From: Trypanosoma brucei | Taxonomy: Eukaryota | Direction of reading: 5' to 3' | NCBI GenBank assembly: GCA_000002445.1 | Contig: CP000066.1 | Location: 1,152,001-1,216,000 of the forward strand | Length of the DNA: 64,000 nt | In this document: positions 2,650 to 61,189 of the stretch, piece after piece | Layout: the number at the start of each line of letters is the position of its first letter | How positions within the stretch are numbered: the first letter of the stretch is position 1 | The notes under the pieces: model-generated | Databases searched by the model: none | Told to the model about the DNA's origin: nothing | What the model saw: the letters and a program-made list of their open reading frames with translations, nothing else | Made by a program: the position numbers and the translations under genes

Positions 2650-3210
2650 AACTGCAGGGACTGCGGGTCGGTTTGTTCTGAGTGGAAGTGCGCAAGTAGT
2701 AGCTCTATTTTACTCTTTGTGTGGAAACATTTGTCAGGTAAAGAAGAAAAATGAGTAATAAGAGTGTTAGAAAAGGAATCCATAGAGAGGTAAAGGGAAG
2801 CACTGATATGTATCACTGCCGTGTTGCAACGGCTTCGTGACGGAAAAAACAAAGGTTTCGCAGAGACTGGGAAACTGACCACGTAAAATCATTCAAATAG
2901 CGTTTTATTTTTACCACAAAGTGGAAGAGAGAAAAAGAAGAGTTAGGAAAAAAAAAACGTTCGAAGACAGAAAAAATAGTAACCCACTAATCACTGAGAG
3001 TGGATATACAACATACTTTTAATACTAAAAAAAAATTTAAAAACTTATTTCTTGAATCGGGCCGCACCCTCACGCAGAAACAACAACCACATCTAACAGA
3101 AAAGAAAACATACGATTTTTAACACAAAGAAGGATAACACACGGTAAGACAGAAAAATACTATGGAAATATGCAAAAAATACTATTTCGTTTTTCTTAAC
3201 CCCCCAAAAA

Positions 3211-4968
3211 TTATTGCTTCTTTCCTGAATGTCCACCGCTAGTAACAGGAGCAGCGACACCACTCATCTCATCAGCTGGCTCATTACACCTGTTCTGCTC
3301 AGCATTAATGAAACGCGAAAATCTGAAGTGGACAATCGCTGCACCGACCGCTGCCACAACATTGACACCCATCAGTATGAGCATCTGGTTTTTGACACAC
3401 GAAGGTTGCTTACACTCGGGTTTCGTACCAAGCTTCTCAGCCTCAGCATCGTACATACCACCGAACATGAAGCGGTTGAGCGCTATTGTCGCTGCGACAC
3501 CGGAGGAAAAGCCGAAGTGGTAGTGCTTTCCCAAATCCTGTGAATACATTATACGAAACGCAAGCACAACACTTCCCCAACCTGCTCCGTTACCCAAAGC
3601 CCCAAGGAAGAAAGGAAGGATCAGCGCGTTAGCGGGAAGCAACGCGAAGAGCAGGAAGGCGATGCACAACATCAGAGGGCAAAATGGGAGCGCAATTGTT
3701 GTGGGAAACGTTTTAAGCCCCTCTCGCTGCCGCCGTGTCAGCACCATATCCAGATATCCCATAGACATGCGACCAACAGCACTGCCAACAGATATCATGG
3801 TGATATACAGTGTTAGAGTGGAGCTTTTCTTCTCACCGTAACTTTTGCTCTCATAAATTTGGGCAGCGTTCATCTGCATGACGACCGCAGTACCCCACAC
3901 GCCAAAGCATGTAAGCCACATGCACCAAAGATCCACGGTAAGCAAGTGCTGCCAGAAGGACCCGCTGTACTGCGGCAATGGCTTCACCTCGTTCTTCGTT
4001 GTAGCTACCGCTGATTCGGTCACAACATCCTCCAGTGCCTCTCCAATTGTGTCCATATCCGTAGGGCGCACTGGAGTATATCGTCCAAGCCATTGAAACG
4101 GCAACGCAACGACACAAAATGATGCCATCATGAGCACTGCAATAATCGAAAAGGCCAAATAGGCAGCCGGAGGAAGCTTTACATATCCACCAATGAGTGA
4201 TTGTGTGGTGAGAAACAACAGCAGGCTGAGGACGAGTCCCACAGCTATCTTCATCCTTCTGGGAGGCGCAGGCTGGTTCATGTATAACTGAAGTGTCTGC
4301 TGTCGCTTCGTCCACTCCTCTTCACTTAGCCGTTGCTTCCGCCACGCACAAGGAAAATACATGGGCATGCGAGTTACGCTGAGAGCAATGAGTGACACGA
4401 CCACCAACTGTATGGCAACAAAGTACGCGAAACCCGAGTAGTTGTTTTTTTCCACATCATCGGATGTGGTATCCTTAAACCACCCGTTGAAGTAAGCCAT
4501 TAGCACCCCGGTACCGAGACCACTGATTGTCTTGGACACGAGCACAACATAACCCCTGTCAAGTGGAAACTGCAGCATCAGTGGCATAATCGTCGAAACA
4601 TCCAACCAAGAAAATGTGCAATTTACGAGAGCATTGTAAAAGCAAAAGAGACCGACGCTGGGGTTCGCTATCTTTCCATCGAAGGTGAGACCAAAAAGCA
4701 GGAAGCCCAAGAATCCAAGGAAACCAGCAATTGGCAGGACCACCATCGGACCAGCGTAATCGAACAGGGCACCACCAGGGAAACTGAAGTACAGCATGCA
4801 GGTTCCAACGGTACTGATAGTTGTAATGTCTCCCTGTGTCATATTAAATTTGCTCCTTAAGAATGGCGTGAAAATCGAAAAGCAGTATGCCTTTGAGACA
4901 CCCAATCCAGCATAAACTCCTGCCATCAGCATCCGCATACGGGCAAGGTCATCGACAAGGTAAACCAT
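3211..4968 (-). CDS. MFS-like polytopic membrane transporter, array copy 2 (585 aa; variant N-terminus and variant C-terminal tail ...VTSGGHSGKKQ)
   Basis: Paralogue of 862..2649. The N-terminal roughly 130 aa are diverged (MVYLVDDLARMRMLMAGVYAGLGVSKAYCFSIFTPFLRSKFNMTQGDITT), the core is near-identical, and the last roughly 12 codons and the 3' flank (2926-3210, A-rich) are unrelated to the other copies. Confidence 0.75.
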   Translation of the reverse strand: MVYLVDDLARMRMLMAGVYAGLGVSKAYCFSIFTPFLRSKFNMTQGDITTISTVGTCMLYFSFPGGALFDYAGPMVVLPIAGFLGFLGFLLFGLTFDGKIANPSVGLFCFYNALVNCTFSWLDVSTIMPLMLQFPLDRGYVVLVSKTISGLGTGVLMAYFNGWFKDTTSDDVEKNNYSGFAYFVAIQLVVVSLIALSVTRMPMYFPCAWRKQRLSEEEWTKRQQTLQLYMNQPAPPRRMKIAVGLVLSLLLFLTTQSLIGGYVKLPPAAYLAFSIIAVLMMASFCVVALPFQWLGRYTPVRPTDMDTIGEALEDVVTESAVATTKNEVKPLPQYSGSFWQHLLTVDLWCMWLTCFGVWGTAVVMQMNAAQIYESKSYGEKKSSTLTLYITMISVGSAVGRMSMGYLDMVLTRRQREGLKTFPTTIALPFCPLMLCIAFLLFALLPANALILPFFLGALGNGAGWGSVVLAFRIMYSQDLGKHYHFGFSSGVAATIALNRFMFGGMYDAEAEKLGTKPECKQPSCVKNQMLILMGVNVVAAVGAAIVHFRFSRFINAEQNRCNEPADEMSGVAAPVTSGGHSGKKQ

Positions 4969-5501
4969 AACTGCAGGGACTGCGGGTCGGTTTGTTCTGA
5001 GTGGAAGTGCGCAAGTAGTAGCTCTATTTTACTCTTTGTGTGGAAACATTTGTCAGGTAAAGAAGAAAAATGAGTGATAAGAGTGTTAGAAAAGGAATCC
5101 ATAGAGAGGTAAAGGGAAGCACTGATATGTATCACTGCCGTGTTGCAACGGCTTCGTGACGGAAAAAACAAAGGTTTCGCAGAGAATGGGAAACTGACCA
5201 CGTAAAATCATTCAAATAGCGTTTTATTTTTACCACAAAGTGGAAGAGCGAAACGTGGCTGCCTGCTCACACGAACAAAACACTCTAAGGTAAAACAAAA
5301 TCCGCCCATCAACCACTAAGAGTGATCAAATGGCACACCCTCTTGCTTGCAAGAAGCAACACAATGTGGGAGTGAGGAGCAATTATTATATTGATTAGTA
5401 GTCACATCAAGGATAAATTCAACGTAACAAGATTTATGAGATAGAGGCAAATGCATATTTTCAATTTAGAGTTCAGGTACGGCAACAGCTGTAAAACAAC
5501 C

Positions 5502-7289
5502 CTACTGCTGCGCTGCTCCGCCACTGTGTGAGCCCCCTTCATTTGGCTGCCCCGCATCCTCTGTAACAGGAGCAGCGACACCACTCATCTCATCAGCTGG
5601 CTCATTACACCTGTTCTGCTCAGCATTAATGAAACGCGAAAATCTGAAGTGGACAATCGCTGCAGCGACCGCTGCCACAATATTGACACCCATCAGTATG
5701 AGCATCTGGTTTTTGACACACGAAGGGTTTTTACACTCGGGTTTCGTACCAAGCTTCTCAGCCTCAGCATCGTACATACCACCGAACATGAAGAGGTTGA
5801 GCGCTATCGTTGACACAATTCCAGAACTGTAGCCGAAGTGGTAGTGCTTTCCCAAATCCTGTGAATACATCGTACGAATTACAAGCACACAACACCCCCA
5901 ACCTGCTCCGTTGCCCAAAGCCCCAAGGAAGAAAGGAAGGATCAGCGCGTTAGCGGGAAGCAACGCGAAGAGCAGGAAGGCGATGCACAACATCAGAGGA
6001 CCAAATGGGAGCGCAATTGTTGTGGGAAACGTTTTAAGCCCCTCTCGCTGCCGCCGTGTCAGCACCATATCCGTGAACCCCATAGACACGCGACCAACAG
6101 CACTGCCAACAGACATCATGGTGATATACAGTGTTAGAGTGGAGCTTTTCTTCCCGCCGTAACTTTTGCTCTCATAAATTTGTGCAGCGTTCATCTGCAT
6201 GACAGTTCCAGTACCCCACACGCCGAAGCATGTAAGCCACATGCACCAAAGATCCACGGTAAGCAAGTGCTGCCAGAAGGACCCACTGTACTGCGGCAAT
6301 GGCTTCACCTCGTTCTTCGTTGTAGCCACCGCTGATTCGGTCACAACATCCTCCAGTGCCTCTCCAATTGTGTCCATATCCGTAGGGCGCACTGGAGTAT
6401 ATCGTCCAAGCCATTGAAACGGCAACGCAACGACACAAAATGATGCCATCATGAGCACTGCAATAATCGAAAAGGCCAAATAGGCAGCCGGAGGAAGCTT
6501 TACATATCCGCCAATGAGTGATTGTGTGGTGAGAAACAACAGCAGGCTGAGGACGAGTCCCACAGCTATCTTCATCCTTCTGGGAGGCGCAGGCTGGTTC
6601 ATGTATAACTGAAGTGTCTGCTGTCGCTTCGTCCACTCCTCTTCACTTAGCCGTTGCTTCCGCCACGCACAAGGAAAGTACATGGGCATGCGAGTTACGC
6701 TGAGAGCAATGAGTGACACGATCAGCAATCTAGCGGCAATGAAGTACATGAAACCCGAGTAGTTGTTTTTTTCCACATCATCGGATGTGGTATCCTTAAA
6801 CCACCCGTTGAAGTAAGCCATTAGCACCCCGGTACCGAGACCACTGATTGTCTTCAACACGAGCACAACATAACCCCTGTCAAGTGGAAACTGCAATATC
6901 GCCGGCATGATCGTTGCAACATCTAATGTTGGGATCCCCGAATAAACTATTGCGTCGAAGACACAGAAAAGGGTTAAAGTCGGGTTCGCTATCTTTCCAT
7001 CGAAGGTGAGACCAAAAAGCAGGAAGCCCAAAGACCCTAGAAACCCACCAAGGGGGAGTAGCACCATCGGACCAGCGTAATCGAACAGAGCACCGATTGG
7101 AAAGCTGCAGTAACCGATGCAATTGCCGACGGTACTGATAGTTGCAATTTCACTTTGCGACAGACGATACTTTTTTCGCAGAAGAACGGCCATTAATGTG
7201 AAGCAATATGGGGCCGCTGTAGAAGCCATTGTATACACCCCGGAAGCTAACATGCGTACTCGCGCAAGGTCATCGATAATATACGTCAT
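5502..7289 (-). CDS. MFS-like polytopic membrane transporter, array copy 3 (595 aa; most diverged N-terminal third)
   Basis: MTYIIDDLARVRMLASGVYTMASTAAPYCFTLMAVLLRKKYRLSQSEIAT..., with the same C-terminal tail as copy 1 (GGSHSGGAAQQ). There are scattered substitutions in TM2-TM5 and TM10-11. Confidence 0.75.
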   Translation of the reverse strand: MTYIIDDLARVRMLASGVYTMASTAAPYCFTLMAVLLRKKYRLSQSEIATISTVGNCIGYCSFPIGALFDYAGPMVLLPLGGFLGSLGFLLFGLTFDGKIANPTLTLFCVFDAIVYSGIPTLDVATIMPAILQFPLDRGYVVLVLKTISGLGTGVLMAYFNGWFKDTTSDDVEKNNYSGFMYFIAARLLIVSLIALSVTRMPMYFPCAWRKQRLSEEEWTKRQQTLQLYMNQPAPPRRMKIAVGLVLSLLLFLTTQSLIGGYVKLPPAAYLAFSIIAVLMMASFCVVALPFQWLGRYTPVRPTDMDTIGEALEDVVTESAVATTKNEVKPLPQYSGSFWQHLLTVDLWCMWLTCFGVWGTGTVMQMNAAQIYESKSYGGKKSSTLTLYITMMSVGSAVGRVSMGFTDMVLTRRQREGLKTFPTTIALPFGPLMLCIAFLLFALLPANALILPFFLGALGNGAGWGCCVLVIRTMYSQDLGKHYHFGYSSGIVSTIALNLFMFGGMYDAEAEKLGTKPECKNPSCVKNQMLILMGVNIVAAVAAAIVHFRFSRFINAEQNRCNEPADEMSGVAAPVTEDAGQPNEGGSHSGGAAQQ

Positions 7290-27907: not shown

Positions 27908-30900
27908 TCACTCAAGAAGCCCAGACTGCACGATATGTGCCAGGTTGTGCTCCGCGCTTAGCAGAGTGTCCACCGCGCGCTGTAGCTCTGCCGGTAGTGG
28001 CCTCAATCCACTCCAATGTGATTTTGCCGCGGCCCTAAGCTCTAGAAGTGTACTAAGGGATTCAGACCCACGCGTAACAACGGGAACGAAGCCATCCACC
28101 ACCGCTAAACCCGGCACATCATCCATGACGGCCAAAGTGCGAGGGTCATTGCAACATGCACTGGCCAACAAAAGCGCAAACGGGGTGGTAAATACTCCAA
28201 ACACCGGTTGGATCATACAGTGAGTGTCCCCACTAGTTGGAATCTTGTCAAACGCGGCAAAACAAGGAAGCGAACTGTAGACGCGGCTGGATGCAGTGGC
28301 GCCAGCGCCGGCAGATCCATCTCCGCTTTTTGCCACCACCCCGCCCCGCGGCTGACTAACACCACAAGAAACAAGCAGAGGGGGCGGCACACGCACGTTC
28401 AGAACCCTCTTCAGATCCTTAGACTCCACTGTGACCTGCGACGTCGCATTATGAGCTACTGCCCTCTTCTGTACGAAAGCGCGCGGGAATGAGGCAAACG
28501 TAACAGCGAGGCGCAGTCGACCCTCCCGTGACGGCGCAAGTCCGTCTGTTAACGGTTGGCATAACGCTTCCGCTGTGGGAATAGGCGAAGAGGTAAGAAG
28601 TACCCTGAGAGGGTCGAAGGCGGGCACACTTGCCTCAACGTGCTCAACTAATCGCCGCAGCCTTGGGACTATAATGTTAAGGAAGCGCTGCGCATCCTCA
28701 CTGAGAGCCGGCAACATAAGCTCAAGTACGTCATAACCACCAACCTCACCTCCACGACACGAGGAGCGGTGGCCATCAACAATTGACCCGCGGCCTGTTA
28801 GTGAAGATAACACTAGTGCTAGCACTCGAAGGCAGAGGTGTTGACAGTCCATCAAGAATCCAGCAAGGAGCAACTTGGCAAATTGCAGCGGCAGCGCGCC
28901 ATTCACTGACACCTGCTCACCACCATGTTGGGGAAGCGGCGGTGGCACGCAAGCTGCTAGAAGCGATAACGCCACTGTTATTAGATTAACTCCCTCAGCA
29001 TCGCCTTGCGATCTGCGCTCCAAATCCTCAGGGGAAGTGAGACCCATGGAAATGAAAAGATTGCGTGCGGCAGAAGGGAGTGTAAGAGGTTTGGGCGAGG
29101 TAAGTAATCCGAGTTCGCATTGAACCGCTGAAAGAAGCAACTGCAGTTCCTGTGAATCAAAAAATCCTTCCCCCCTTCGCAGAGATTGAACAAGTTGGGC
29201 ATATTGCTCCGTTCGTGGTTTCGAAGGAAAGGGGATTTTATGCTCCGAGAGGAGTGCGTGAAGAGGTCCAATAAGCTTCCCTTCATCAGCGACGTGAGAA
29301 GCGCCTTCAACTCTCAACTGCGGGTGGGACCGGAACATCTGTGCAGTCGCCTGAAACGCCGACTTCAACTGAAGCTGTTTAAATAGCTCGGCGATGGCCC
29401 TGTTCCTTGATTCTTCCTCGTTGTCGCAATACTCGCCTTTACCTGTCATGCGCAGACCGCTCTCATCTTCCATTTCCAACAGCGTGATAAGCGTCACCTG
29501 AGAAGATGGGCCAGTTGTAGCACGCTCCTTTACCATCAAGCGCAATGGTTTAAACGGCGCATGCAACACCGTGTAAAGTGCCATGACGGACAGCTTACCG
29601 CGAGGTGTAAAGTCACGGAGGGAGGAATCGTATATATCCTTGCTCTGATTCCGCAGTATCACACGCTTACTGTCGGTTACGCCGTCCGGCAGACGGCTAT
29701 TTTTTATAACACCAACTATGTATTCATAATGCATAGCGGCACGCGCCACAGATTCGTACCCTTCATCTCCCGCACCACGTGCCACAAAGTGGGTACCTAA
29801 AATTGGTTGCTCCACGAGGTACCGTCGGTTCGGTACCCTTCCGTACACTTCAAAGCGAAATGAGTACGGAGGTGGTGAAGGAAGTCCAGAGGCAGCACAC
29901 TTCTGGGGCAGTTGAGACCTGGCATTTGTGAAGAGCGGAAGGGCTTCGACGATATCAAGACCGGTGTCCTCTAGCTCCACACCACTCCTGGGAGCTCTCT
30001 TCTGTTCAAAAAGCGCATCGAAAATTAGGTGTTCTTTGCACCTCTTTATGTATGCGCGGCAGGCGGTGAGGTAACTTCCCCACACGAATGGCTTCCGACA
30101 CTCGGACCGCGGTGGTACCGTAGGCACCACTGGCTTCTCCTTATGCATATCGGGAAGACTCTTCAGTCCTGGCGGGGATTCTGTGTTGGCGGGCATCAGC
30201 GGGTCACCAGGCATGGGGGCCGGCCGACCCCTCCGACGTGCATTTCCAGCAAACTCCGCTTGCCTTGAACCACTGTAAACGGGCACGCCGAGAGCACCAA
30301 GCGTAAAGATAGCGTGCATGCAACATAAAGTATAGGCCTCCTTCTTCGTAGAGGCGCAGCCAACTGCATGTCGGCGGCCGAACTGTGTTGGTAGAGGAAT
30401 TTCAGCAATGGCACGGTGCACAAACCCATGGAGAGGGCTGCTGACATTGTACTGTCTTGTTACGCGGGAGACATCGACACCCATTCGTCGGCAATAAAAG
30501 TCGAAGAGACGCGGCGCGGTCTGAAGGATATCCGACGAATGCACTGACACTAACTTCGACAAATCGCACAATGTGTCGTCTTTTAGGTCAACGGAAGTAG
30601 GTGCACTCGGGGCCATCGTACTTCCCATGCTTGGAGTGCTTGACGTGACGTCGGGGAGACGTTGTGAGGGCGGAGGCGACTCCATCGCCGGCATTTCTTC
30701 CTTCGGTACAGATTCCCGCATCTTCGTTGTCGCCTCTTTTGAAAGTCGCGCCCACAGGCACGACTTTTCGTGCTCTTTACGCACGGGTGGGGGAATACAA
30801 ACAATTTGTCGTCTCTGTCCAGGTCCGAGCGGTGCCCAGCGCCCAAGGAGAGCTGCCGCACCGCTGTGTTTCTTCTGCAAGGCTGGAAGATCGTACATCG

Positions 30901-33220
30901 CAACCCCAATCTCGTCCAGAACGAGTTCAGCATGTACGGCGCACATCACCATCGCCTCGTCCTCCCTGTACGCCTCTCCGTGAGCCACTACACATTCAAA
31001 TGTTTCAGGCACTGGCAACACAGCCTTGCATATCCAACGCTTCAGTCCCTCATCAGCGTCGCTACTGACAGTAGTTTTCAACACACTCTCAAGCCGCTTG
31101 CCGTGCCGCTCCAGGTAGTCCCTCAAGCGCACTATGGCAAAGCGATCCGATTGCCTTACCGAAGGGAGCGTGTGCACGTAGTTACGTCCTTCTTCCACGT
31201 TTGTGTTTGGGTTGACAATAATATAACCATCGGCATCAGGCTTTAACGACCAGTCACTCTTCGGTAGCTCCGCACGTGCCCGCTGCAGTCGCGACTCTTC
31301 CGTGCCCATGAAGTTAGCTTGCTTCCCTGTGCCCCCTGATCCCTTGGTGAGGCACCGGGCTGGTGAAAGTCCAGGAACCATGATGCGACCAACGTGACTC
31401 ACCACATAGCGATACGGCGGCGGCAGCTTCGTGCTACGTGTGAGGTTCTGAGGAGCCTTTCCTTCATGAGACTGATTTTCTGGCTCACTGCCCAAAGGTC
31501 TGTTCAGGACCTCGAGGACGTGGAGAGCATGCATTGAGGCAGCAGTCTCCGCCTCTAGCTCCGATGTCCCTATTCCTATGGCCACGAAGGATGGTAGCAG
31601 TTCATCCGCATCACCGGCCATTACTTTTTGGTCTTTGTTTTCCTCCTCACTCCCCCTCACGGGGGTCACTGGCACCGTCACCGTGGCGCGATAGACGTGG
31701 TGATCTTTTATTCCAAGGGCTTCCACAAAAAATGGTGAGGCCGCGCTGCCGTGGCAGGTCCCGTGCTGGGTTATATAATCCATAAACTTGCGACGAGCGG
31801 ATAGAACAAGTGCGTCTAACTCCGTTACGTGAGTATAATTTTCAATTGCCTTGGCATGGCTCATGAGGAGCGACTCCAGCGAGGCTGCCACATCACCCGA
31901 GGCCACCTCGTCTGCCTCTTTGGCTAACTGTAATGGTGGAGGTGAAGGTCTGTCATAATGATACTCGCAGTCGTCCGGTCCACAGCACCACCGATTTACT
32001 TTCCGACATTCGGCTGCATGCGCCTCTTGCTTTCCTCGACAAGACGGGTACAAGGCAAGCCCTAGTGCATCGATAATGAGCTCGGCATGCATGCACGCCA
32101 GTGCGTAGGCTTCCTTCTTTGTTGGGGCCTTACCACAAGCAATGCGCTCGCCAAAGCGGCCATCGATAGGTAACCTAATTTGTGCAACGAACAGTTTGCC
32201 ATTATCTTCATCATCAGAGGTAGCCAAGCCACTGCATGATGGGGGAGCGGCATCGCCACTGCCAGACCCCACCCTATTATCATGCTTGTGCAATGCCGTT
32301 ATGCGGCAATAACGTCTAAGGAGGCAGTTGTACGATACAAAAAACTGCTTCACACGATAGACGCTACCGTGGTCCAACAGAAGCGGTGAAGCAAGCGTGA
32401 GCTTCATGGGTGTGAAGGTTCCAGCAGTAACCGTGGAAAACTCGAGCTTGTCAATCTGAAGCCGCCTCTCCGCTTCTCTCATAGCACCCTCACGCACCAG
32501 TTGCAGTCGTGGCGGTGACGGAGTGCTTGGAGGTAGCGGGTCATCACCGGGCATTGGGGCCCACCTTCCAGAACTACGGGCGGCCTCTGCATGCCGCTGC
32601 TGCTTAGATGTTAGTTGGAACATCGGTATGCCCAGTGTATCGATAATTCGCTCTGCGTGCATGGCGGCAACAAGCTCCGCCTCCTTCGACGACGGGGCGA
32701 GTCCCTCCGCCCAACGACCGCCGTAAGCACCGGGCAGAGGCACAAATAACCGCGCATGGAACAATGTATCGCCATCGCTCTCCGATGTTTGCACCTCCCG
32801 CACCTCCACAGTGAGCTGTCGTGAGCTTAGCGCCCCCTGAGGGCCCGGTGCGTCCGCCGCGGATTGCACACGTTTGATGAAATTTGCCACCTTCGCCCGT
32901 GCAAAGGTATCGAGAACAGTTATGGTCTCCGCGGCACCATCCTTTGGAGCGCCCTGCTCACCAGCCTCTGGGAGATTTTCGATATCTTCCTCCTCACCAT
33001 CCATGACATCAATTCCTTCAGGCGAAAGTAATTCAACCTCTAGGAGTTCAGGGCTTCCGTCGTCCATGTGGGGTGGCGGCTGCGCTTTAACATTTGTGTT
33101 ACCTCCCGCAAGATGGGGAGTAGTACCGAATATTCGGGTCCCAACTGTCGTCAAGCGGGCCCTACGCCACACCGGGCACAACAACCGGTCAGACACTCGT
33201 GACACCCACGGCCGTATCAT
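27908..33220 (-). CDS. Very large protein (about 1770 aa) carrying several (4 clear, possibly 7) degenerate double-stranded-RNA-binding-motif (dsRBM)-like modules; possible mitochondrial RNA-binding protein
   Basis: Four modules recur with the pattern GRFGERIACGKAPTKKEAYALACMHAELIIDALG / GRWAEGLAPSSKEAELVAAMHAERIIDTLG / GRRHAVGCASTKKEAYTLCCMHAIFTLGALG / HGEAYREDEAMVMCAVHAELVLDEIG. This resembles the C-terminal GxGxSKKEAKxxAAxxAL helix of dsRBMs. Each module is followed by a Pro-rich RWAPMPGD(D)PLPP...SPP.LQL motif. Further weaker dsRBM-like segments occur (…IGIGTSELEAETAASMHALHVLEVL; …ARGAGDEGYESVARAAMHYEYIVGVI). The likely start is MIRPWVSRVSDRLLCPVWRRARLTTVG, an Arg-rich and acid-free sequence that looks like a presequence. 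The track ORF begins at an upstream GTG and reads through a polypyrimidine tract, and I could not reconcile the exact start coordinate to within 1 nt. Confidence 0.55.
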   Translation of the reverse strand: MIRPWVSRVSDRLLCPVWRRARLTTVGTRIFGTTPHLAGGNTNVKAQPPPHMDDGSPELLEVELLSPEGIDVMDGEEEDIENLPEAGEQGAPKDGAAETITVLDTFARAKVANFIKRVQSAADAPGPQGALSSRQLTVEVREVQTSESDGDTLFHARLFVPLPGAYGGRWAEGLAPSSKEAELVAAMHAERIIDTLGIPMFQLTSKQQRHAEAARSSGRWAPMPGDDPLPPSTPSPPRLQLVREGAMREAERRLQIDKLEFSTVTAGTFTPMKLTLASPLLLDHGSVYRVKQFFVSYNCLLRRYCRITALHKHDNRVGSGSGDAAPPSCSGLATSDDEDNGKLFVAQIRLPIDGRFGERIACGKAPTKKEAYALACMHAELIIDALGLALYPSCRGKQEAHAAECRKVNRWCCGPDDCEYHYDRPSPPPLQLAKEADEVASGDVAASLESLLMSHAKAIENYTHVTELDALVLSARRKFMDYITQHGTCHGSAASPFFVEALGIKDHHVYRATVTVPVTPVRGSEEENKDQKVMAGDADELLPSFVAIGIGTSELEAETAASMHALHVLEVLNRPLGSEPENQSHEGKAPQNLTRSTKLPPPYRYVVSHVGRIMVPGLSPARCLTKGSGGTGKQANFMGTEESRLQRARAELPKSDWSLKPDADGYIIVNPNTNVEEGRNYVHTLPSVRQSDRFAIVRLRDYLERHGKRLESVLKTTVSSDADEGLKRWICKAVLPVPETFECVVAHGEAYREDEAMVMCAVHAELVLDEIGVAMYDLPALQKKHSGAAALLGRWAPLGPGQRRQIVCIPPPVRKEHEKSCLWARLSKEATTKMRESVPKEEMPAMESPPPSQRLPDVTSSTPSMGSTMAPSAPTSVDLKDDTLCDLSKLVSVHSSDILQTAPRLFDFYCRRMGVDVSRVTRQYNVSSPLHGFVHRAIAEIPLPTQFGRRHAVGCASTKKEAYTLCCMHAIFTLGALGVPVYSGSRQAEFAGNARRRGRPAPMPGDPLMPANTESPPGLKSLPDMHKEKPVVPTVPPRSECRKPFVWGSYLTACRAYIKRCKEHLIFDALFEQKRAPRSGVELEDTGLDIVEALPLFTNARSQLPQKCAASGLPSPPPYSFRFEVYGRVPNRRYLVEQPILGTHFVARGAGDEGYESVARAAMHYEYIVGVIKNSRLPDGVTDSKRVILRNQSKDIYDSSLRDFTPRGKLSVMALYTVLHAPFKPLRLMVKERATTGPSSQVTLITLLEMEDESGLRMTGKGEYCDNEEESRNRAIAELFKQLQLKSAFQATAQMFRSHPQLRVEGASHVADEGKLIGPLHALLSEHKIPFPSKPRTEQYAQLVQSLRRGEGFFDSQELQLLLSAVQCELGLLTSPKPLTLPSAARNLFISMGLTSPEDLERRSQGDAEGVNLITVALSLLAACVPPPLPQHGGEQVSVNGALPLQFAKLLLAGFLMDCQHLCLRVLALVLSSLTGRGSIVDGHRSSCRGGEVGGYDVLELMLPALSEDAQRFLNIIVPRLRRLVEHVEASVPAFDPLRVLLTSSPIPTAEALCQPLTDGLAPSREGRLRLAVTFASFPRAFVQKRAVAHNATSQVTVESKDLKRVLNVRVPPPLLVSCGVSQPRGGVVAKSGDGSAGAGATASSRVYSSLPCFAAFDKIPTSGDTHCMIQPVFGVFTTPFALLLASACCNDPRTLAVMDDVPGLAVVDGFVPVVTRGSESLSTLLELRAAAKSHWSGLRPLPAELQRAVDTLLSAEHNLAHIVQSGLLE

Positions 33221-34242
33221 TTTTCTCCGGTATACGAAAAAAAAATAAGGAGGAGGAGGAAGAAAAAGAAGGTTGCGTACGTGCTCTGCGAAATAGGTCC
33301 GACAGACACATACCGGGGGAAGAGTGACCCAACTCATGAAGTCACGCAGAAAACAAGTTCGTGTAGAGAGAAATACGCCAGTGAGCGTGTACACGTATAC
33401 TGAAAAGGGCAGAAGAAAAAAAAGTGGCCGAAGAAAACGCTCGCTGATGGAAATAAAATTTGGGGAGAGAGTGCATGAGGGAGGGACGAAAACAAGTCTG
33501 CCGTCCGGACACTACCGAACAGACGCCTTCCACGTAGGGGTGACGTGTTGACGGCGACACATGGAAAAAAGAAACGGGGAGATATAGACAAAGAGATGGG
33601 ATAGACCGCCCGTATTCGTGTGAGCTTGTCTTTCACTTCAAAAAAAAAAAACAAAAAAAAACAAAAAATAACAATAATAACGATCCGGCACAACACAGCA
33701 CATGGGGCAGTGGCCGACTGTTTTCTTCAGAACACTTATGACGCGTGAACTGCCATCTTTTTTTTTCCCCCTTCCCCTCGAAGCAGTATACCAAGTCACG
33801 GTCATCCCATTTCCCTCTTCATTTTTGTTTTATCCTTCCATTCCCCTCTCTGCTGCGAGCACTCGTCACTTGTTGCACTTGAATACTTCTATATAACCAA
33901 CCCACATATTCCTCTACGCTGTCTTGACACCTCTCTTTCATCCAATTGCGCCCGACCTCTGCCTATCTACACATTTTTAGTTTCCCCTCTCCCCCCTTGC
34001 CTTTTCCACCCCAACCATACGCATCAACTTGAGCCGAAGAACAAGCAAGCACCCGAATTCACATCCATAAGCGCCTCCTTTTTAAAAAAAAAATATATCG
34101 CACTTGCACATGTTTCATCAACTGCTTATCCGCAACGAGGATACACACACAAAAATGGAACTTTTCTTCCAGCCCCACGTTCACGCACCTCTTCCGCCCT
34201 CCCGATCGCACGAGCCGTGTAGACCACTTCTGCAACAGTAAT

Positions 34243-47894: not shown

Positions 47895-50461
47895 TTAACC
47901 CTTTCCTCCACTTTGGCTTGCTTTCTTTTCCTTTCCTCTTTAAACTCAATTCCTTTCGCCTTACCTGCCCTATTGTTATGACAACTCTGCGGGTACGGAC
48001 GCAACCCTATAGCAGCAATGCACACTACCCGATTGCAAAATATCCAAATTGTTCCCTCTCTGTTTTGTTTCCTTCTATCACTTTCGCTATTCTTAAATAA
48101 CGTTAAGTTCCAAAGCTTATCTCCTTGCCTTTTTTTTTTCCACCTTCCTCTCTCTCTTTCTTTCTCTTTTTCTCTTTGTTGCTTTATTGTCAGCTTCTCT
48201 CCAGTCCTTCTGCTTTGCTTGTGACGCAATACACGATCCGAAATCACAGTCAATTAATTAACAAGAGATGTGGGAAAAAGAAAGAGTAACTTAAGGTACT
48301 GAAGAGTTGAGGTTTGGATCCTGCAGCTCCACAGATTTATACACAAGTGAGGCGACAATGCATTTTTTTTCTTTTTTTTTTTTACGGACGCACGTTCAAC
48401 ACGTGCGCTGCACCCATGAAGCAGACCGTTAAAAGGGAGGGGAGAGGGAGAAACATTTGAAAAAAAAAAGGAAACGAAACACAAAATAAATGTGCATAAA
48501 ATATAAATCTAAACACAAATGGATCATATGTGTTGTACAAATCGTGGTAGTGAATGCACATGTTGACCACTTAATATACTTTATATTCCTTCATTCGATC
48601 CCTTCATATTTCCTTTTTTTTATATTCCTAACCCTTTACCTTCATTTGCCATTTTCATGTTATTCCCAATACTTAACTCTTTGTTGTTTTATTACTTTTT
48701 TTTTTCCTTTTTACTCACCCCCTTTTTTGTTCCTCCCTCTCTAACCTCCTTCATTCGATGCATTTACATTTATTACTTCATACCGCTTTCATCAGTACAT
48801 ACGTTTATTGAACAAATACACATCTGCCACAAGTCTAGATATTACGCAAACACACATCTCTTTTTTTTTCTTTTTATTTTTCTTTTTTTTTCCCCCTCCC
48901 CCCGCTGCACGGCTCAACCATTTCATTTAATAAAAAGAAATTACCTCCACTGGTGAGTGATCAGAAAAGGGGGAAAGATCAAGATAGAGATAAGGAAATA
49001 GAGATAAGGAAATAGGGAAAAAGGAAAAAAAAAGCAAAAGAAAGATTAGAAGGCGGAGAACACAGCTGAAGTGGTGGGGTGCCACCACAAGCGCGGATTT
49101 CTTATTGAGTTTTTTTTTTTAATTTCATCTTTTAAAAGGAACTCGACACTGGAAGAATCACAGCCGCGAGACAGGCACTACACAAAACAAATTAAAACAA
49201 AAACAGCTTGATATATCATTTCACACTGAGCAGAAAATGGCGAGCAGAAATTTTATAAAACAAAAAAAAAAGAGGAAAAGATAAAAAACAACAACAACAA
49301 CAATATAAGGAGACACAAACATGCACTCGCACATACAGAGATTTAAATATATAAATAAATATATATATATATATACGAAAGTGCACATCATTTGTTATAA
49401 TTGTAATTATAATTGTTACTGTAGCGATTGTTACCATCACGATTAAGTGAAAAGAGGGAGCGCCATATCTTCCCTGATATCTTGCTTGACTGCGCTCTCT
49501 GTTATTCTCCTCTTTTTGCTTATGTGTGTGGTTAGGGGTCTTAACTCCTTTATTTTATTTTTCATTCGACTTAAGGTTTGATTTCTTTAGAAGTCCGCTT
49601 CCACCAGGTCACAATCATTTTTTTTTCCTTCGTTATACTTCATATATTTTCCTCATCACTCTGCTTTCCTCGTTTCATCAAATACAGCTCAATAAAAACA
49701 ACAATAATTTTAATATTTATTAACAATACAAGCGTTAAGAATATGATAAATAAAAATGATGGTGATAACAGAACGTGCCGAAATACATACATATATATTA
49801 AAAGGTAAAGGTAAAGATAAATGATATATATATATATATATATTATTTATTGATTTAAAAAAAAAAAACCGACACACACAACCAGTTAGGCGTTACAATT
49901 TCTCTCCTTGCAGGAGTTGGAAACAAAGAAAAAAAAAAAGGGAGCCTGTAGAGAAACAAACAAAACACTGCGCGTGAGGGGAAATAATGACGCTGAACCA
50001 ACTTTTAAAAAAAACGGGTGGAAGAACAACTTCGATGACGGTAATGACATACGGAAGAAAGGGAAAGAGGAGGAGAAAATATTAGCAAAATACGCACGCA
50101 AGAAAAATAATAATAATAATAAAAGGAGAACAACAAGCGAAAAAAAAAAAGACAGCTGATTATTCCATATTGGGAAGCCTGCGGCGAACACCACCCAAAC
50201 TGATACATTTTATCTGTTCTGCAATCCGTTTGGTATTGGAGATGATCGCAAAAGTGGGTTAAGGGGCAAAAACGCAAAAAAAAAAAGAGGAGGGAGGGAA
50301 GGGATGGGCAATAAGCAAATATCACATTTTTGAGAAAGAAAAAAAAACAGGAGCAAACATCAGGGGACGCTTGCACTTGCTTGCCTCTGCTCCGGATGTA
50401 CCCCACCTTCCGTCACACGTCATGTGTGCTCCCCCGCCACACATACACAAAAAAAAGTCAT

Positions 50462-56863: not shown

Positions 56864-58633
56864 CTATTCGAGGCGTGCCGGTGCAGTGTTGTTTCCGATG
56901 CGGACCTGCTCGCCACCGGCACCAGAGCTGCGCAGTAAGCGCGCCCTCTTGATTTCCTCGCGTTCGGCGGCAATCTTCACCTCCTCCTGCTTCGTCAGGT
57001 GCGAGCGGTACTCCACCATCTTGCTGCGGCGTGTAAGCACCTCCTCGTTGTTCTCGTCCACAGGGTGGTTGAACTCGATGCCAGCAGCGTCCAGAGCCTC
57101 CTCTGACTCCTTGAACTCCTCCAACGCCTTCGCCTGCTTCTCTTTCAGCATCGCCAGCTCCTCCTCTACGCCCTGGCGCAGCCTGTATAGCTCTTTCTTC
57201 ATGTCGGCGTGCTTCTTCGCATTCGGGTCGAATGTTTCCACACAGAACTCCAACTGGATGTGCGTTGTACGGATGTTCCGGTCAATCTCCTCCATCCGCT
57301 TCTCTTTCTTGTAGATAAGAGAACCCAACGTGAGGTACAGCATGCGGAAGTACTCCAAGTGCTCTTTATGAACATCCAAACGAAGGGCTGCAAGATCCTG
57401 GCTCGTTTTGTCGTGGCGGGCCTTCACCGCGGCACAGCCCTCCGACACCAGCTCCTCCACCAGCCCGGTACAGCGGATCGCGAGGTCGCAGTTGTACACT
57501 GTCAGCTCGAGCAGTTTCTTGTGCTGCGAGGCAACCTCCAGGAATTGAGAGTACTCCACACGTCGCTTCTCCTCGCGGTCAATCTCCTCAATCCGCCGCT
57601 TGACCTCATCGAATCGCTCCGTGCCAAGCTTCTGCAACTGCCGCTCAAGGTCCTGGATCTTGTTCCACGTCTCCTCCTGCCTATCCTCGTTCTCTCGGAT
57701 GTAGCGGTCGCTTTTCTCTTTGTTCGCAGCGTGGCGCTTCGTCGCCTCGGCATCCTCAAGGTCAGCCTTCTGGATCGCGTCGTGGATGTGCTTCAGATCT
57801 GTCTCACACCGCTGCTTCAGGCGACGCTTCGCATCCTTCATCTGACTCGTTTCCTGATTCGCCTGTTTCTGCACCTCATGGATTTTGCTGAAGGCCTGGT
57901 TCTCCTCCTCACATTTGCTGATCAAGCGGAATTTGTCCTGAATCAGATCGATTAAGCGCTCCTGAAGCTGTACCTTCGTCCACATTTGCTCCTCGGCGAC
58001 CTGCATCTCACCATCATGCATCGCAACGTTCTGGATCTCGTTCGTTTTTTCAAGCTGCGCCAACTGCGTCTTGATCTGGTCGTCAGTTGAGGCAAGCGCA
58101 TTCTGGATTTGCGTTACGTTCATGATATCCTCCACTTGCTTCAATGTCTGTGTGGGGACCTGCGCCAACTGCGTTGCATCCAGCTGCGAGCGGCGAAGCT
58201 CCTCCTCAACCTTTTCAACCTTCGCGATGGCGTTGTCGATCATCTGCGTGAAGCTCACAACACGCGTCTTGTTGCGGTTCTGACGCAGGTCCTGAAGCAC
58301 CTTTTTCATGGCAATAATGTCCATGAATTGTGCCTTGTCCTCAGGGCGGTAAAGCTCGCGTTGGCTCATCTCGAGTCCACACACGCGCATCAGCTTTGCG
58401 AGGTCGTATACCTCCGTTAGGTTCCATTTCGTACCGACGTCCACAGCGGCAACCAGCTCCTCAGCCTTCAGGTGGGCGCCGCGCAGCTTCTGCCTCTGTG
58501 TCTCGCTCCAGTCAGATACATGCAATTCCTGTACAAGTTCCTCATTCTCCAAACAGGCTGTCTTCAGCTTCAGGTTGTGGATCTTCTGCTTGCGCGCAGC
58601 CTCCAAACCAGTGGCATCGTCAACTGCGGCCAT
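56864..58633 (-). CDS. PFR1: Paraflagellar rod protein (major PFR component), array copy 1
   Basis: True ATG (atggccgcagttgacgat). The 589-aa alpha-helical protein MAAVDDATGLEAARKQKIHNLKLKTACLENEELVQELHVSDWSETQRQKL... matches from memory the T. brucei PFR-C/PFR1-type N-terminus; I cannot exclude the paralogous PFR2/PFR-A type without a database. The tandem multicopy arrangement is typical of PFR loci. Confidence 0.85.
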   Translation of the reverse strand: MAAVDDATGLEAARKQKIHNLKLKTACLENEELVQELHVSDWSETQRQKLRGAHLKAEELVAAVDVGTKWNLTEVYDLAKLMRVCGLEMSQRELYRPEDKAQFMDIIAMKKVLQDLRQNRNKTRVVSFTQMIDNAIAKVEKVEEELRRSQLDATQLAQVPTQTLKQVEDIMNVTQIQNALASTDDQIKTQLAQLEKTNEIQNVAMHDGEMQVAEEQMWTKVQLQERLIDLIQDKFRLISKCEEENQAFSKIHEVQKQANQETSQMKDAKRRLKQRCETDLKHIHDAIQKADLEDAEATKRHAANKEKSDRYIRENEDRQEETWNKIQDLERQLQKLGTERFDEVKRRIEEIDREEKRRVEYSQFLEVASQHKKLLELTVYNCDLAIRCTGLVEELVSEGCAAVKARHDKTSQDLAALRLDVHKEHLEYFRMLYLTLGSLIYKKEKRMEEIDRNIRTTHIQLEFCVETFDPNAKKHADMKKELYRLRQGVEEELAMLKEKQAKALEEFKESEEALDAAGIEFNHPVDENNEEVLTRRSKMVEYRSHLTKQEEVKIAAEREEIKRARLLRSSGAGGEQVRIGNNTAPARLE

Positions 58634-58939
58634 GGTAGCACTCTTTTATTAAGGATAATCGATTTCTTGTGTTGAAAGTTGTGTGATTTCTGTCTGGTGC
58701 TTGAAGTTCTTACGTGATGTTTCTAGATCTTATTCCTTGCTTTCCTACAAGCTATTGCGAAAAACTGTTTGCCGGACGCGTACAAGATGATGAAGAAAAG
58801 TGTGAGCATCAGTGCAATGTTAAAGCTACACAGGCAAGTGGTGGTGCCGGAAGCCGTCGGTTTGGCACAATAACAGAGCGGATGCTCGAAAACGCATCAT
58901 GGTGACCTACATATACCGACCCAGTTGGGCCTTTATTAC

Positions 58940-58966
58940 ATCTAGTACAAGAATAAGAAAAGACTG
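58940..58966 (-). promoter_or_regulatory. Candidate polypyrimidine tract plus AG trans-splice acceptor for the downstream PFR copy; recurs every 2163 bp (61103-61129, 63266-63292)
   Basis: The minus strand reads gcagtcttttcttattcttgtactag about 300 nt upstream of each PFR ATG. Kinetoplastid SL trans-splicing uses a polyY tract followed by AG. The position is not verified experimentally. Confidence 0.3.
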
Positions 58967-59026
58967 CACAAGACATTGGCATCAAATAACTAGTTGCACT
59001 CAATTTACATAATAATTGCGGCCACA

Positions 59027-60796
59027 CTATTCGAGGCGTGCCGGTGCAGTGTTGTTTCCGATGCGGACCTGCTCGCCACCGGCACCAGAGCTGCGCAGTA
59101 AGCGCGCCCTCTTGATTTCCTCGCGTTCGGCGGCAATCTTCACCTCCTCCTGCTTCGTCAGGTGCGAGCGGTACTCCACCATCTTGCTGCGGCGTGTAAG
59201 CACCTCCTCGTTGTTCTCGTCCACAGGGTGGTTGAACTCGATGCCAGCAGCGTCCAGAGCCTCCTCTGACTCCTTGAACTCCTCCAACGCCTTCGCCTGC
59301 TTCTCTTTCAGCATCGCCAGCTCCTCCTCTACGCCCTGGCGCAGCCTGTATAGCTCTTTCTTCATGTCGGCGTGCTTCTTCGCATTCGGGTCGAATGTTT
59401 CCACACAGAACTCCAACTGGATGTGCGTTGTACGGATGTTCCGGTCAATCTCCTCCATCCGCTTCTCTTTCTTGTAGATAAGAGAACCCAACGTGAGGTA
59501 CAGCATGCGGAAGTACTCCAAGTGCTCTTTATGAACATCCAAACGAAGGGCTGCAAGATCCTGGCTCGTTTTGTCGTGGCGGGCCTTCACCGCGGCACAG
59601 CCCTCCGACACCAGCTCCTCCACCAGCCCGGTACAGCGGATCGCGAGGTCGCAGTTGTACACTGTCAGCTCGAGCAGTTTCTTGTGCTGCGAGGCAACCT
59701 CCAGGAATTGAGAGTACTCCACACGTCGCTTCTCCTCGCGGTCAATCTCCTCAATCCGCCGCTTGACCTCATCGAATCGCTCCGTGCCAAGCTTCTGCAA
59801 CTGCCGCTCAAGGTCCTGGATCTTGTTCCACGTCTCCTCCTGCCTATCCTCGTTCTCTCGGATGTAGCGGTCGCTTTTCTCTTTGTTCGCAGCGTGGCGC
59901 TTCGTCGCCTCGGCATCCTCAAGGTCAGCCTTCTGGATCGCGTCGTGGATGTGCTTCAGATCTGTCTCACACCGCTGCTTCAGGCGACGCTTCGCATCCT
60001 TCATCTGACTCGTTTCCTGATTCGCCTGTTTCTGCACCTCATGGATTTTGCTGAAGGCCTGGTTCTCCTCCTCACATTTGCTGATCAAGCGGAATTTGTC
60101 CTGAATCAGATCGATTAAGCGCTCCTGAAGCTGTACCTTCGTCCACATTTGCTCCTCGGCGACCTGCATCTCACCATCATGCATCGCAACGTTCTGGATC
60201 TCGTTCGTTTTTTCAAGCTGCGCCAACTGCGTCTTGATCTGGTCGTCAGTTGAGGCAAGCGCATTCTGGATTTGCGTTACGTTCATGATATCCTCCACTT
60301 GCTTCAATGTCTGTGTGGGGACCTGCGCCAACTGCGTTGCATCCAGCTGCGAGCGGCGAAGCTCCTCCTCAACCTTTTCAACCTTCGCGATGGCGTTGTC
60401 GATCATCTGCGTGAAGCTCACAACACGCGTCTTGTTGCGGTTCTGACGCAGGTCCTGAAGCACCTTTTTCATGGCAATAATGTCCATGAATTGTGCCTTG
60501 TCCTCAGGGCGGTAAAGCTCGCGTTGGCTCATCTCGAGTCCACACACGCGCATCAGCTTTGCGAGGTCGTATACCTCCGTTAGGTTCCATTTCGTACCGA
60601 CGTCCACAGCGGCAACCAGCTCCTCAGCCTTCAGGTGGGCGCCGCGCAGCTTCTGCCTCTGTGTCTCGCTCCAGTCAGATACATGCAATTCCTGTACAAG
60701 TTCCTCATTCTCCAAACAGGCTGTCTTCAGCTTCAGGTTGTGGATCTTCTGCTTGCGCGCAGCCTCCAAACCAGTGGCATCGTCAACTGCGGCCAT
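59027..60796 (-). CDS. PFR1: Paraflagellar rod protein, array copy 2 (identical to copy 1)
   Basis: Identical protein; part of the repeated 2163-bp unit. Confidence 0.85.
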   Translation of the reverse strand: MAAVDDATGLEAARKQKIHNLKLKTACLENEELVQELHVSDWSETQRQKLRGAHLKAEELVAAVDVGTKWNLTEVYDLAKLMRVCGLEMSQRELYRPEDKAQFMDIIAMKKVLQDLRQNRNKTRVVSFTQMIDNAIAKVEKVEEELRRSQLDATQLAQVPTQTLKQVEDIMNVTQIQNALASTDDQIKTQLAQLEKTNEIQNVAMHDGEMQVAEEQMWTKVQLQERLIDLIQDKFRLISKCEEENQAFSKIHEVQKQANQETSQMKDAKRRLKQRCETDLKHIHDAIQKADLEDAEATKRHAANKEKSDRYIRENEDRQEETWNKIQDLERQLQKLGTERFDEVKRRIEEIDREEKRRVEYSQFLEVASQHKKLLELTVYNCDLAIRCTGLVEELVSEGCAAVKARHDKTSQDLAALRLDVHKEHLEYFRMLYLTLGSLIYKKEKRMEEIDRNIRTTHIQLEFCVETFDPNAKKHADMKKELYRLRQGVEEELAMLKEKQAKALEEFKESEEALDAAGIEFNHPVDENNEEVLTRRSKMVEYRSHLTKQEEVKIAAEREEIKRARLLRSSGAGGEQVRIGNNTAPARLE

Positions 60797-61189
60797 GGTA
60801 GCACTCTTTTATTAAGGATAATCGATTTCTTGTGTTGAAAGTTGTGTGATTTCTGTCTGGTGCTTGAAGTTCTTACGTGATGTTTCTAGATCTTATTCCT
60901 TGCTTTCCTACAAGCTATTGCGAAAAACTGTTTGCCGGACGCGTACAAGATGATGAAGAAAAGTGTGAGCATCAGTGCAATGTTAAAGCTACACAGGCAA
61001 GTGGTGGTGCCGGAAGCCGTCGGTTTGGCACAATAACAGAGCGGATGCTCGAAAACGCATCATGGTGACCTACATATACCGACCCAGTTGGGCCTTTATT
61101 ACATCTAGTACAAGAATAAGAAAAGACTGCACAAGACATTGGCATCAAATAACTAGTTGCACTCAATTTACATAATAATTGCGGCCACA

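Follow-up and report, generated by a model that had tools for sequence, protein, structure and literature searches.

Tb927.3.4210, a gene on the minus strand of Trypanosoma brucei brucei TREU927 chromosome 3, lies within a 64,000-nucleotide (nt) stretch of contig CP000066.1 (the window; all positions below refer to it) and encodes a 1770-amino acid (aa) protein. The protein, encoded in the nucleus and imported into mitochondria, is a paralogue of the RNA editing helicase KREH2 (REH2, Tb927.4.1500); it no longer has the RecA1/RecA2 ATPase core but retains the other parts of that helicase. The finding is carried by the domain architecture of the protein, its homology to KREH2, its lack of helicase motifs and its conservation among trypanosomatids, and it makes Tb927.3.4210 a plausible, as yet uncharacterised accessory factor in the editing of mitochondrial RNA. 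The gene is already annotated with an automatic domain name and has been flagged as an interesting unknown by one paper; in literature searches on the Pfam name and on KREH2-like paralogues lacking the helicase, no publication came up that treats it as a core-less KREH2 paralogue or examines its domains.

Homology to KREH2 and the missing motor

The original prediction, made from the letters of the window, described a giant protein composed of reiterated modules resembling the double-stranded RNA-binding domain (dsRBD) and could not place this architecture in any named family. Such a family exists: precomputed Pfam annotation assigns PF00035 and PF26536 (DSRM_REH2) to the Tb927.3.4210 product and PF26536 to all of its orthologues, and the UniProt entry (Q580M1) is named 'REH2 DRSM domain-containing protein'. 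The Pfam scan that we ran gave no PF26536 match, and the DSRM_REH2 assignment rests on the precomputed annotation. Homologue searches recovered one group of full-length helicase-less orthologues (from Trypanosoma, Leishmania, Phytomonas, Leptomonas and Porcisia) and a second group consisting of KREH2/REH2 helicases (E ~1e-60 to 1e-102). By BLASTP, the protein was collinear with aa 30–1255 of KREH2 in two segments (E 2e-46 and 2e-49) of ~28% identity each. A KREH2-family hidden Markov model aligned with aa 96–591 and 640–1311 (E 1e-88 to 1e-102), and this alignment ended before the helicase core in all 22 of the 22 orthologues.

The C-terminal 460 aa, which gave no match in Pfam and had been missed in the original prediction, proved to be homologous to the other end of the helicase. 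When a profile of aa 1300–1770 was compared with the KREH2 family using hhalign, it aligned from KREH2 aa ~1663 to ~2124 (probability 85%, E 6e-6), a span that comprises the end of RecA2, the winged helix (WH), the ratchet, the OB fold and the tail. The AlphaFold2 (AF2) model of this region was confident (predicted local distance difference test score [pLDDT] 82, predicted template modelling score [pTM] 0.89), and the region was identified as a winged-helix/ratchet/OB-fold accessory module of the DEAH/RHA type. None of the helicase motifs I (GxGKT), Ia, II (DExH), III (SAT) and VI (QRxGRxGR) was found anywhere in the protein, and Pfam DEAD, Helicase_C and HA2 did not match it, thereby indicating that Tb927.3.4210 corresponds to KREH2 minus the ~400-aa RecA1/RecA2 core.

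The array of extended dsRBDs

The dsRBD-like character of the modules was borne out by both profile and structural evidence. Pfam dsrm (PF00035) matched the whole protein in three stretches with a score of 47.6 bits (E 2.5e-12; cut-off, 23 bits), while single modules scored 12.8–20.1 bits, each under the cut-off alone, and modules 4 and 6 gave no dsrm match on their own. An AF2 model of aa 95–1200, computed from 37 sequences (mean pLDDT 83.1, pTM 0.66), contained six alpha-beta-beta-beta-alpha units, whose limits are listed in Table 1. The modelled modules superposed on solved dsRBDs (alpha1-beta1-beta2-beta3-alpha2) at 2.0–2.8 Å, and Foldseek was largely in agreement with the dsRBD assignment. 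In modules 1, 2, 4 and 5, the modelled dsRBD fold is followed by a third helix, a Pro-rich segment and a short strand. The four Pro-rich motifs quoted originally were all found (aa 219, 410, 794 and 999), but they do not form linkers as had been supposed; the block-mean pLDDT of 85–95 across the segment of module 1 indicates that it is an ordered extension of the domain.

The reiteration of the modules was supported by two statistical comparisons. Smith-Waterman alignment of 150-aa windows centred on the (M/V)HA helix (aa 187, 377, 762 and 968) gave scores of 85–188 between the four modules, as against 44–55 for the best of the shuffles (200 per pair; z 14–38). Profiles built from the 22 orthologues aligned modules 1, 2, 4 and 5 with one another at hhalign probabilities of 99.5–99.8% (E 1e-23 to 1e-28). 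The four modules bearing the RWAP...SPPxLQL tail are thus clearly homologous. A BLASTP self-comparison returned the identity match alone, off-diagonal matches being probably hidden within the full-length self-match. The module had been described as a unit of about 100 aa that recurs at least four times and begins at a hydrophobic beta-like stretch. Its recurrence stands, but the conserved unit measures ~125–130 aa with a repeat period of ~186–206 aa, and it starts earlier, with helix alpha1 and strand beta1. The consensus of 88 modules reads lPlP..G.r.a.G.a.t.k.A..lc.mHAe..lDalG.ply.....Q..ha..a...gRwap.p...tpsPPpl.

Three further, weaker dsRBD-like helices had also been described in the C-terminal half; the model contains six dsRBD folds in all. 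Judging from profile comparison, the homology of module 3 (aa 563) is weaker than that among the four but real (hhalign probability 91–98% against modules 1, 2, 4 and 5). Module 6 (aa 1163) reached 14–78% against the other modules, which is not significant by sequence, and its dsRBD fold was visible in the AF2 model only. A seventh dsRBD at aa 1196–1296 was considered and found to be unsupported, as hhalign gave less than 3% to the other modules. A profile search of the PDB with this segment returned insignificant matches only, including the dsRBD-like uS5 N-domain (E 0.3–1.3). By eye, the secondary-structure pattern of the segment looks alpha-beta-beta-beta-alpha; the profiles give no link to the dsRBD modules.

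The modules differ in the residues through which canonical dsRBDs contact RNA. At the N-terminus of helix alpha2, modules 2 and 5 carry TKKEA and module 1 carries SSKEA, and the Lys at this position is conserved in at least 80% of the 22 orthologues in modules 1, 2 and 5; in modules 3, 4 and 6, the canonical alpha2 RNA-contact residues have been lost. The isoelectric points (pI) of the modules span 5.1–9.7, modules 2, 5 and 6 being basic (8.7–9.7) and modules 3 and 4 acidic.

Mitochondrial location and a possible role in RNA editing

The N-terminus had been read as a mitochondrial presequence, and several lines of evidence agree with this. The N-terminus is Arg-rich and amphipathic, with 6 Arg and 1 acidic residue in the first 25 aa and a hydrophobic moment of 0.62 (background, 0.23). 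Q580M1 was enriched 4-fold in TbTim17 BioID, Tb927.3.4210 is entered with 'Medium' confidence in a mitochondrial proteome list, and it was labelled by matrix TurboID (PMC11381364). The last study described Tb927.3.4210 as an uncharacterised mitochondrial protein whose enrichment by RESC6- and RESC8-TurboID was above that of any known editing factor, with spectral counts of 31/18/16 for RESC6 and 33/26/17 for RESC8, the parent line giving 0. After RNA interference (RNAi) against RESC14, the counts with RESC8 fell to 13/7/5, and those of KREH2 fell from 13/6/2 to 1/1/1 (PMC11381364). The labelling of the protein by RESC6- and RESC8-TurboID, together with its homology to KREH2, upholds the suggestion that it is a candidate for the editing machinery.

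We consider it rather probable that Tb927.3.4210 serves as a non-catalytic RNA- or protein-binding scaffold or adaptor on RESC-bound editing ribonucleoproteins, having arisen as a motor-less KREH2 paralogue. Such a protein would be unable to unwind RNA. The charge and Lys pattern of the modules suggests a division into RNA-contacting and protein-contacting units, in which the basic modules that retain a Lys where helix alpha2 begins (1, 2 and 5, perhaps also 6) would contact A-form duplex, e.g. hybrids of guide RNA (gRNA) and mRNA. Protein-docking surfaces would be provided by modules 3 and 4, which are acidic and degenerate, and by the WH/ratchet/OB module. With the RecA domains gone, the latter module has no means of forming an RNA tunnel, and a docking surface is its more likely role. 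KH2F1 is a zinc-finger cofactor of KREH2. For KREH2 to associate with KH2F1 and GAP1, both its N-terminal region of >1000 aa and its OB fold/C-terminal region are needed (PMC6488192), and these are exactly the regions kept by Tb927.3.4210. Association of KREH2 with GRBC likewise requires both regions. Instead of remodelling RNA, the protein could serve to hold duplexes or to present them, or it could be a competitor of KREH2 for its partners.

Several observations weigh against a role as a scaffold on editing complexes. The residues with which canonical dsRBDs contact RNA survive only in part and have been lost from three modules out of six. Mutation of a KREH2 dsRBD (K1078A/A1086D) abolishes RNA and RESC association (PMC4987287, PMC12936278), and module 6, the counterpart of this essential domain, is without the critical Lys. 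Matrix TurboID also labels abundant unrelated proteins, and a 193-kDa protein gives many peptides, so that the RESC proximity may be less specific than it appears. The KREH2 literature searched (KREH2 pulldown proteomics excluded) gives REH2C as KREH2, KH2F1 and KH2F2 and does not mention Tb927.3.4210. The protein was likewise not found in the component tables of a 2026 review or in the supplements of the KRBP72 paper.

The lack of any sign in this literature of a stable REH2C subunit would also suit an assignment to another mitochondrial RNA pathway, such as gRNA biogenesis from sense/antisense duplex precursors, rRNA/mitoribosome assembly, or mRNA stabilisation/translation, the proximity to RESC being then incidental or secondary. 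An array of many dsRBDs is suited to long duplex precursors, and the RESC TurboID lists also hold mitoribosomal and matrix proteins (Rsm22, KRIPP21 and HSP60). We nevertheless give this assignment a modest chance of being correct, since the nearest relative of the protein is an editing helicase, its enrichment with RESC6 and RESC8 exceeds that of known editing factors, and its proximity to RESC8 depends on RESC14. In addition, a PDB sequence search gave no match to any solved chain, T. brucei mitoribosome and assemblosome entries included, which indicates that the protein is absent from the solved trypanosome mitoribosome, assemblosome, RESC and RECC structures. It is improbable, in our view, that all of the modules are dead for RNA binding and form a pure protein–protein scaffold of 'type B' dsRBDs, like dsRBD5 of Staufen and the dsRBDs at the C-termini of TRBP, Loqs and R2D2: TKKEA is still found in modules 2 and 5, both of them basic (pI 8.7 and 9.7, respectively), the conserved alpha2 Lys is present in modules 1, 2 and 5, and Pfam dsrm still gives these three 15–20 bits.

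The remaining explanation, that the repeats reflect chance or low-complexity similarity or that the open reading frame (ORF) is a pseudogene decaying after duplication of KREH2, is refuted, since the protein is conserved and has been detected by proteomics. Although the orthologue of T. equiperdum OVI is split by a frameshifting deletion near aa 1091, the similarity of the repeats is far above that of shuffles, full-length orthologues occur throughout Trypanosoma, Leishmania, Phytomonas and Leptomonas, and T. b. gambiense and T. evansi have an intact gene; both halves of the protein gave confident AF2 models, and its peptides were detected in several proteomes. The lineage of T. equiperdum OVI is of the dyskinetoplastic type, and the OVI annotation gives two ORFs (P0057 and P0059) for the orthologue. 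The first extends to aa ~1091 (window ~29950) and then runs out of frame (…LDIVDAPEVCCLWTSFTTSVLISL), and the second restarts at MHYEYIV (aa 1163). A deletion that removed the 'EALPLFTNARSQLP' region and shifted the frame would be in keeping with this arrangement, and the break may be due to relaxed selection or to a mistake in the assembly.

KREH2 is the main candidate regulator of substrate choice, fidelity and stage specificity in U-insertion/deletion editing. A scaffold such as we favour for Tb927.3.4210 would be a natural separation-of-function variant, with both partner-association regions of KREH2, no ATPase and strong RESC6/RESC8 labelling. It opens direct tests of whether the same RNAs and cofactors are bound and of whether its loss phenocopies or opposes that of KREH2. 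More speculatively, and with little weight attached to it, Tb927.3.4210 might be a non-catalytic protein dedicated to antagonising KREH2 or partnering it, which clamps or shields duplexes, competes with the helicase and tunes productive versus non-canonical editing, possibly in a stage-specific manner. It would then have kept the KREH2 surfaces for KH2F1-type zinc-finger cofactors and for RESC-bound gRNA–mRNA duplexes and have dispensed with the motor. If this were true, the protein and two further RecA-less DSRM_REH2 families would make up a kinetoplastid-specific class of duplex-reading editing regulators.

Gene model, related families and known systems

Table 1. Features of Tb927.3.4210 in the window
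Feature	Protein (aa)	Window position	Strand	Remarks
CDS of Tb927.3.4210	1–1770	27908..33220	-	1770 aa + stop; 100% match to T. brucei TREU927 protein
ORF read-through, non-coding		33221..33394	-	45-nt polypyrimidine tract (~33233–33277) and upstream ATG
Probable mitochondrial targeting presequence	1–30	33131..33220	-	Arg-rich, amphipathic
Module 1	107–241	32498..32902	-	dsRBD fold 107–195, then alpha3, ordered RWAPMPGDDPLPPSTPSPPRLQL segment, short strand; dsrm 15 bits
Module 2	285–432	31925..32368	-	dsRBD fold 285–385, disordered insertion; then alpha3, RWCCGPDD...SPPPLQL; dsrm 20.1 bits
Module 3	474–571	31508..31801	-	Divergent dsRBD fold without RWAP tail; pI 5.4; dsrm 12.8 bits
Module 4	694–815	30776..31141	-	dsRBD fold 694–771, then alpha3, RWAPLGPGQRRQIVCIPPPV; core pI 5.1
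Module 5	902–1021	30158..30517	-	dsRBD fold 902–976, then alpha3, RPAPMPGDPLMPANTESPPGLKS; dsrm 16.5 bits
Module 6	1100–1175	29696..29923	-	dsRBD fold, model only; counterpart of the mutated KREH2 dsRBD
KREH2-homologous segment	1196–1296	29333..29635	-	Corresponds to KREH2 aa ~1148–1243, ahead of the helicase core there
WH/ratchet/OB module (DEAH/RHA type) and KREH2-like tail	1313–1770	27911..29284	-	No RecA domains before

The ORF first reported for this locus (27908–33394) is present on the minus strand, but its part beyond ATG 33220 is read-through. Its product showed 100% identity to XP_844013.1/Q580M1, an 1809-aa NCBI model in which an upstream ATG is used, and the Tb927.3.4210 product equals that entry minus a 39-aa N-terminal extension. 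This extension derives mostly from the 45-nt polypyrimidine tract directly upstream of ATG 33220 (LFLPPPPYFFFVY) and looks like a trans-splicing signal mistakenly translated. The start at ATG 33220 (MIRPWVSRV...) fits the TriTryp-derived CDS length of 5313 nt, and the equivalent Met is the start in the orthologues and in the T. equiperdum model (MIRPW/MR...). The orthologue starts, the CDS length and the polypyrimidine tract together indicate that the real protein has 1770 aa. Its predicted mass of 192.8 kDa agrees with the 193 kDa entered for Tb927.3.4210 (PMC11381364 supplement), which supports its identity. In the window, ORFs for EMP70, a 666-bp ORF, Tb927.3.4210, a RING-variant protein and a subtilase follow the order Tb927.3.4190–.4230, as a supplementary table of PMC4288722 lists an endosomal membrane protein (Tb927.3.4190), a 666-bp gene (Tb927.3.4200), a hypothetical gene of 5313 bp (Tb927.3.4210), a Zn-finger protein (Tb927.3.4220) and a subtilisin-like peptidase (Tb927.3.4230).

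Elsewhere in the window, positions 56864–62959 (minus strand) hold a tandem set of three genes for paraflagellar rod proteins of 589 aa (Pfam Flagellar_rod, E 6e-107); this is presumably the chromosome 3 PFR1 array. Positions 862–7289 (minus strand) hold a tandem trio of 595, 585 and 595 aa, and the one member tested gave a Nodulin-like/MFS match. The GC content falls to 0.344 at positions 48001–50000, compared with ~0.42–0.55 elsewhere; the 19 window ORFs that reach 250 aa or more all lie on the minus strand, which places this dip within a single polycistronic unit.

A phmmer search with module 2 against 1.84 billion representatives retrieved 113 proteins, nearly all with 2–6 copies of the module. 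The phmmer and homologue matches that carried a source name came from kinetoplastids without exception, and no canonical dsRBD protein was recognised among them. At least four lineages of DSRM_REH2 proteins were separate in a neighbour-joining tree (without bootstrap support): KREH2, the Tb927.3.4210 family, family 3 (~1000–1250 aa, including Bodo saltans) and family 4 (~930–1050 aa). The 'unique' N-terminus of KREH2 is thus an extended-dsRBD array common to at least four kinetoplastid protein families, and a module without a close counterpart outside kinetoplastids bears on drug-target selection. An early-branching member of the Tb927.3.4210 family (P0029; L001:1561-6783, Logan SRR34068980) has a longer C-terminal region (600 aa). 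From its sequence, it may represent an intermediate whose core is degenerate; such a core was not accepted, as its collinearity with KREH2 RecA1-RecA2-WH (427 columns, 23% identity) was non-significant (E 0.19).

In T. brucei, family 3 is represented by Q57UJ4 (P0109; 1048 aa, 114.1 kDa, chromosome 8) and family 4 by a 933-aa protein (P0113). By mass and chromosome, P0109 fits Tb927.8.7260, the '114 kDa kinetoplast-associated protein'. Tb927.8.7260 is also labelled by RESC6/RESC8 TurboID and is reported to be frameshifted in akinetoplastic T. evansi (PMC4288722). An identity of the RESC-proximal unknown Tb927.10.9280 (108 kDa) with the T. brucei family 4 protein is not supported, because the mass of the latter (104.9 kDa) does not match. 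Like Tb927.3.4210, families 3 and 4 are RecA-less, carry 2–6 copies of the same extended dsRBD module and have N-termini resembling mitochondrial targeting sequences, and their named members are all kinetoplastid. They differ in being shorter and in stopping after the dsRBD array, with no WH/ratchet/OB module detected, and they form separate clades in the tree.

Among known systems, KREH2 is the closest. The two proteins share a collinear N-terminal region of ~1250 aa with a series of extended dsRBDs bearing GRWAP...SPPPL tails, a homologous WH/ratchet/OB module with a C-terminal tail, a mitochondrial location, and a proximity to RESC that decreases on RESC14 depletion. Tb927.3.4210 differs in lacking RecA1/RecA2 and motifs I, Ia, II (DEAH), III and VI, the core of ~390–440 aa being replaced by a junction at aa ~1311–1313, in having only ~28% identity to KREH2, and in not being given as an REH2C subunit in the REH2C literature searched. 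It also differs in module 6, from which the Lys mutated in the KREH2 dsRBD ('dsRBD2' or 'dsRBD6') is absent. Older papers counted two dsRBDs in KREH2 (PMC4987287), and the classically mutated domain is named 'dsRBD6' in the 2026 review, a naming that fits six modules with module 6 of Tb927.3.4210 as its counterpart. Tb927.4.3020, the 'REH2 paralog' of the literature and the only KREH2 paralogue discussed in print within the literature searched, is related to KREH2, belongs to the DEAH/RHA type and has a dsRBD (PMC4987287). It is described as shorter than KREH2, with a helicase domain and a single adjoining dsRBD, and Tb927.3.4210 is the converse, with many dsRBDs and no core. In comparison with MLE/DHX9 (RNA helicase A) and DHX36, Tb927.3.4210 has six dsRBDs, where MLE/DHX9 has two and DHX36 none, and alpha3 together with an ordered Pro-rich segment extends the domain. 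It also differs in having no motor core, in its mitochondrial location and in being confined, among named sequences, to kinetoplastids. Staufen, TRBP/Loqs/R2D2 and the N-termini of ADAR resemble it in their tandem dsRBDs of mixed RNA- and protein-binding types, on which its modules superpose at 2.0–2.8 Å, but it is set apart from them by the family signature given above and by the matches of module 2, those with a source name being confined to kinetoplastids.

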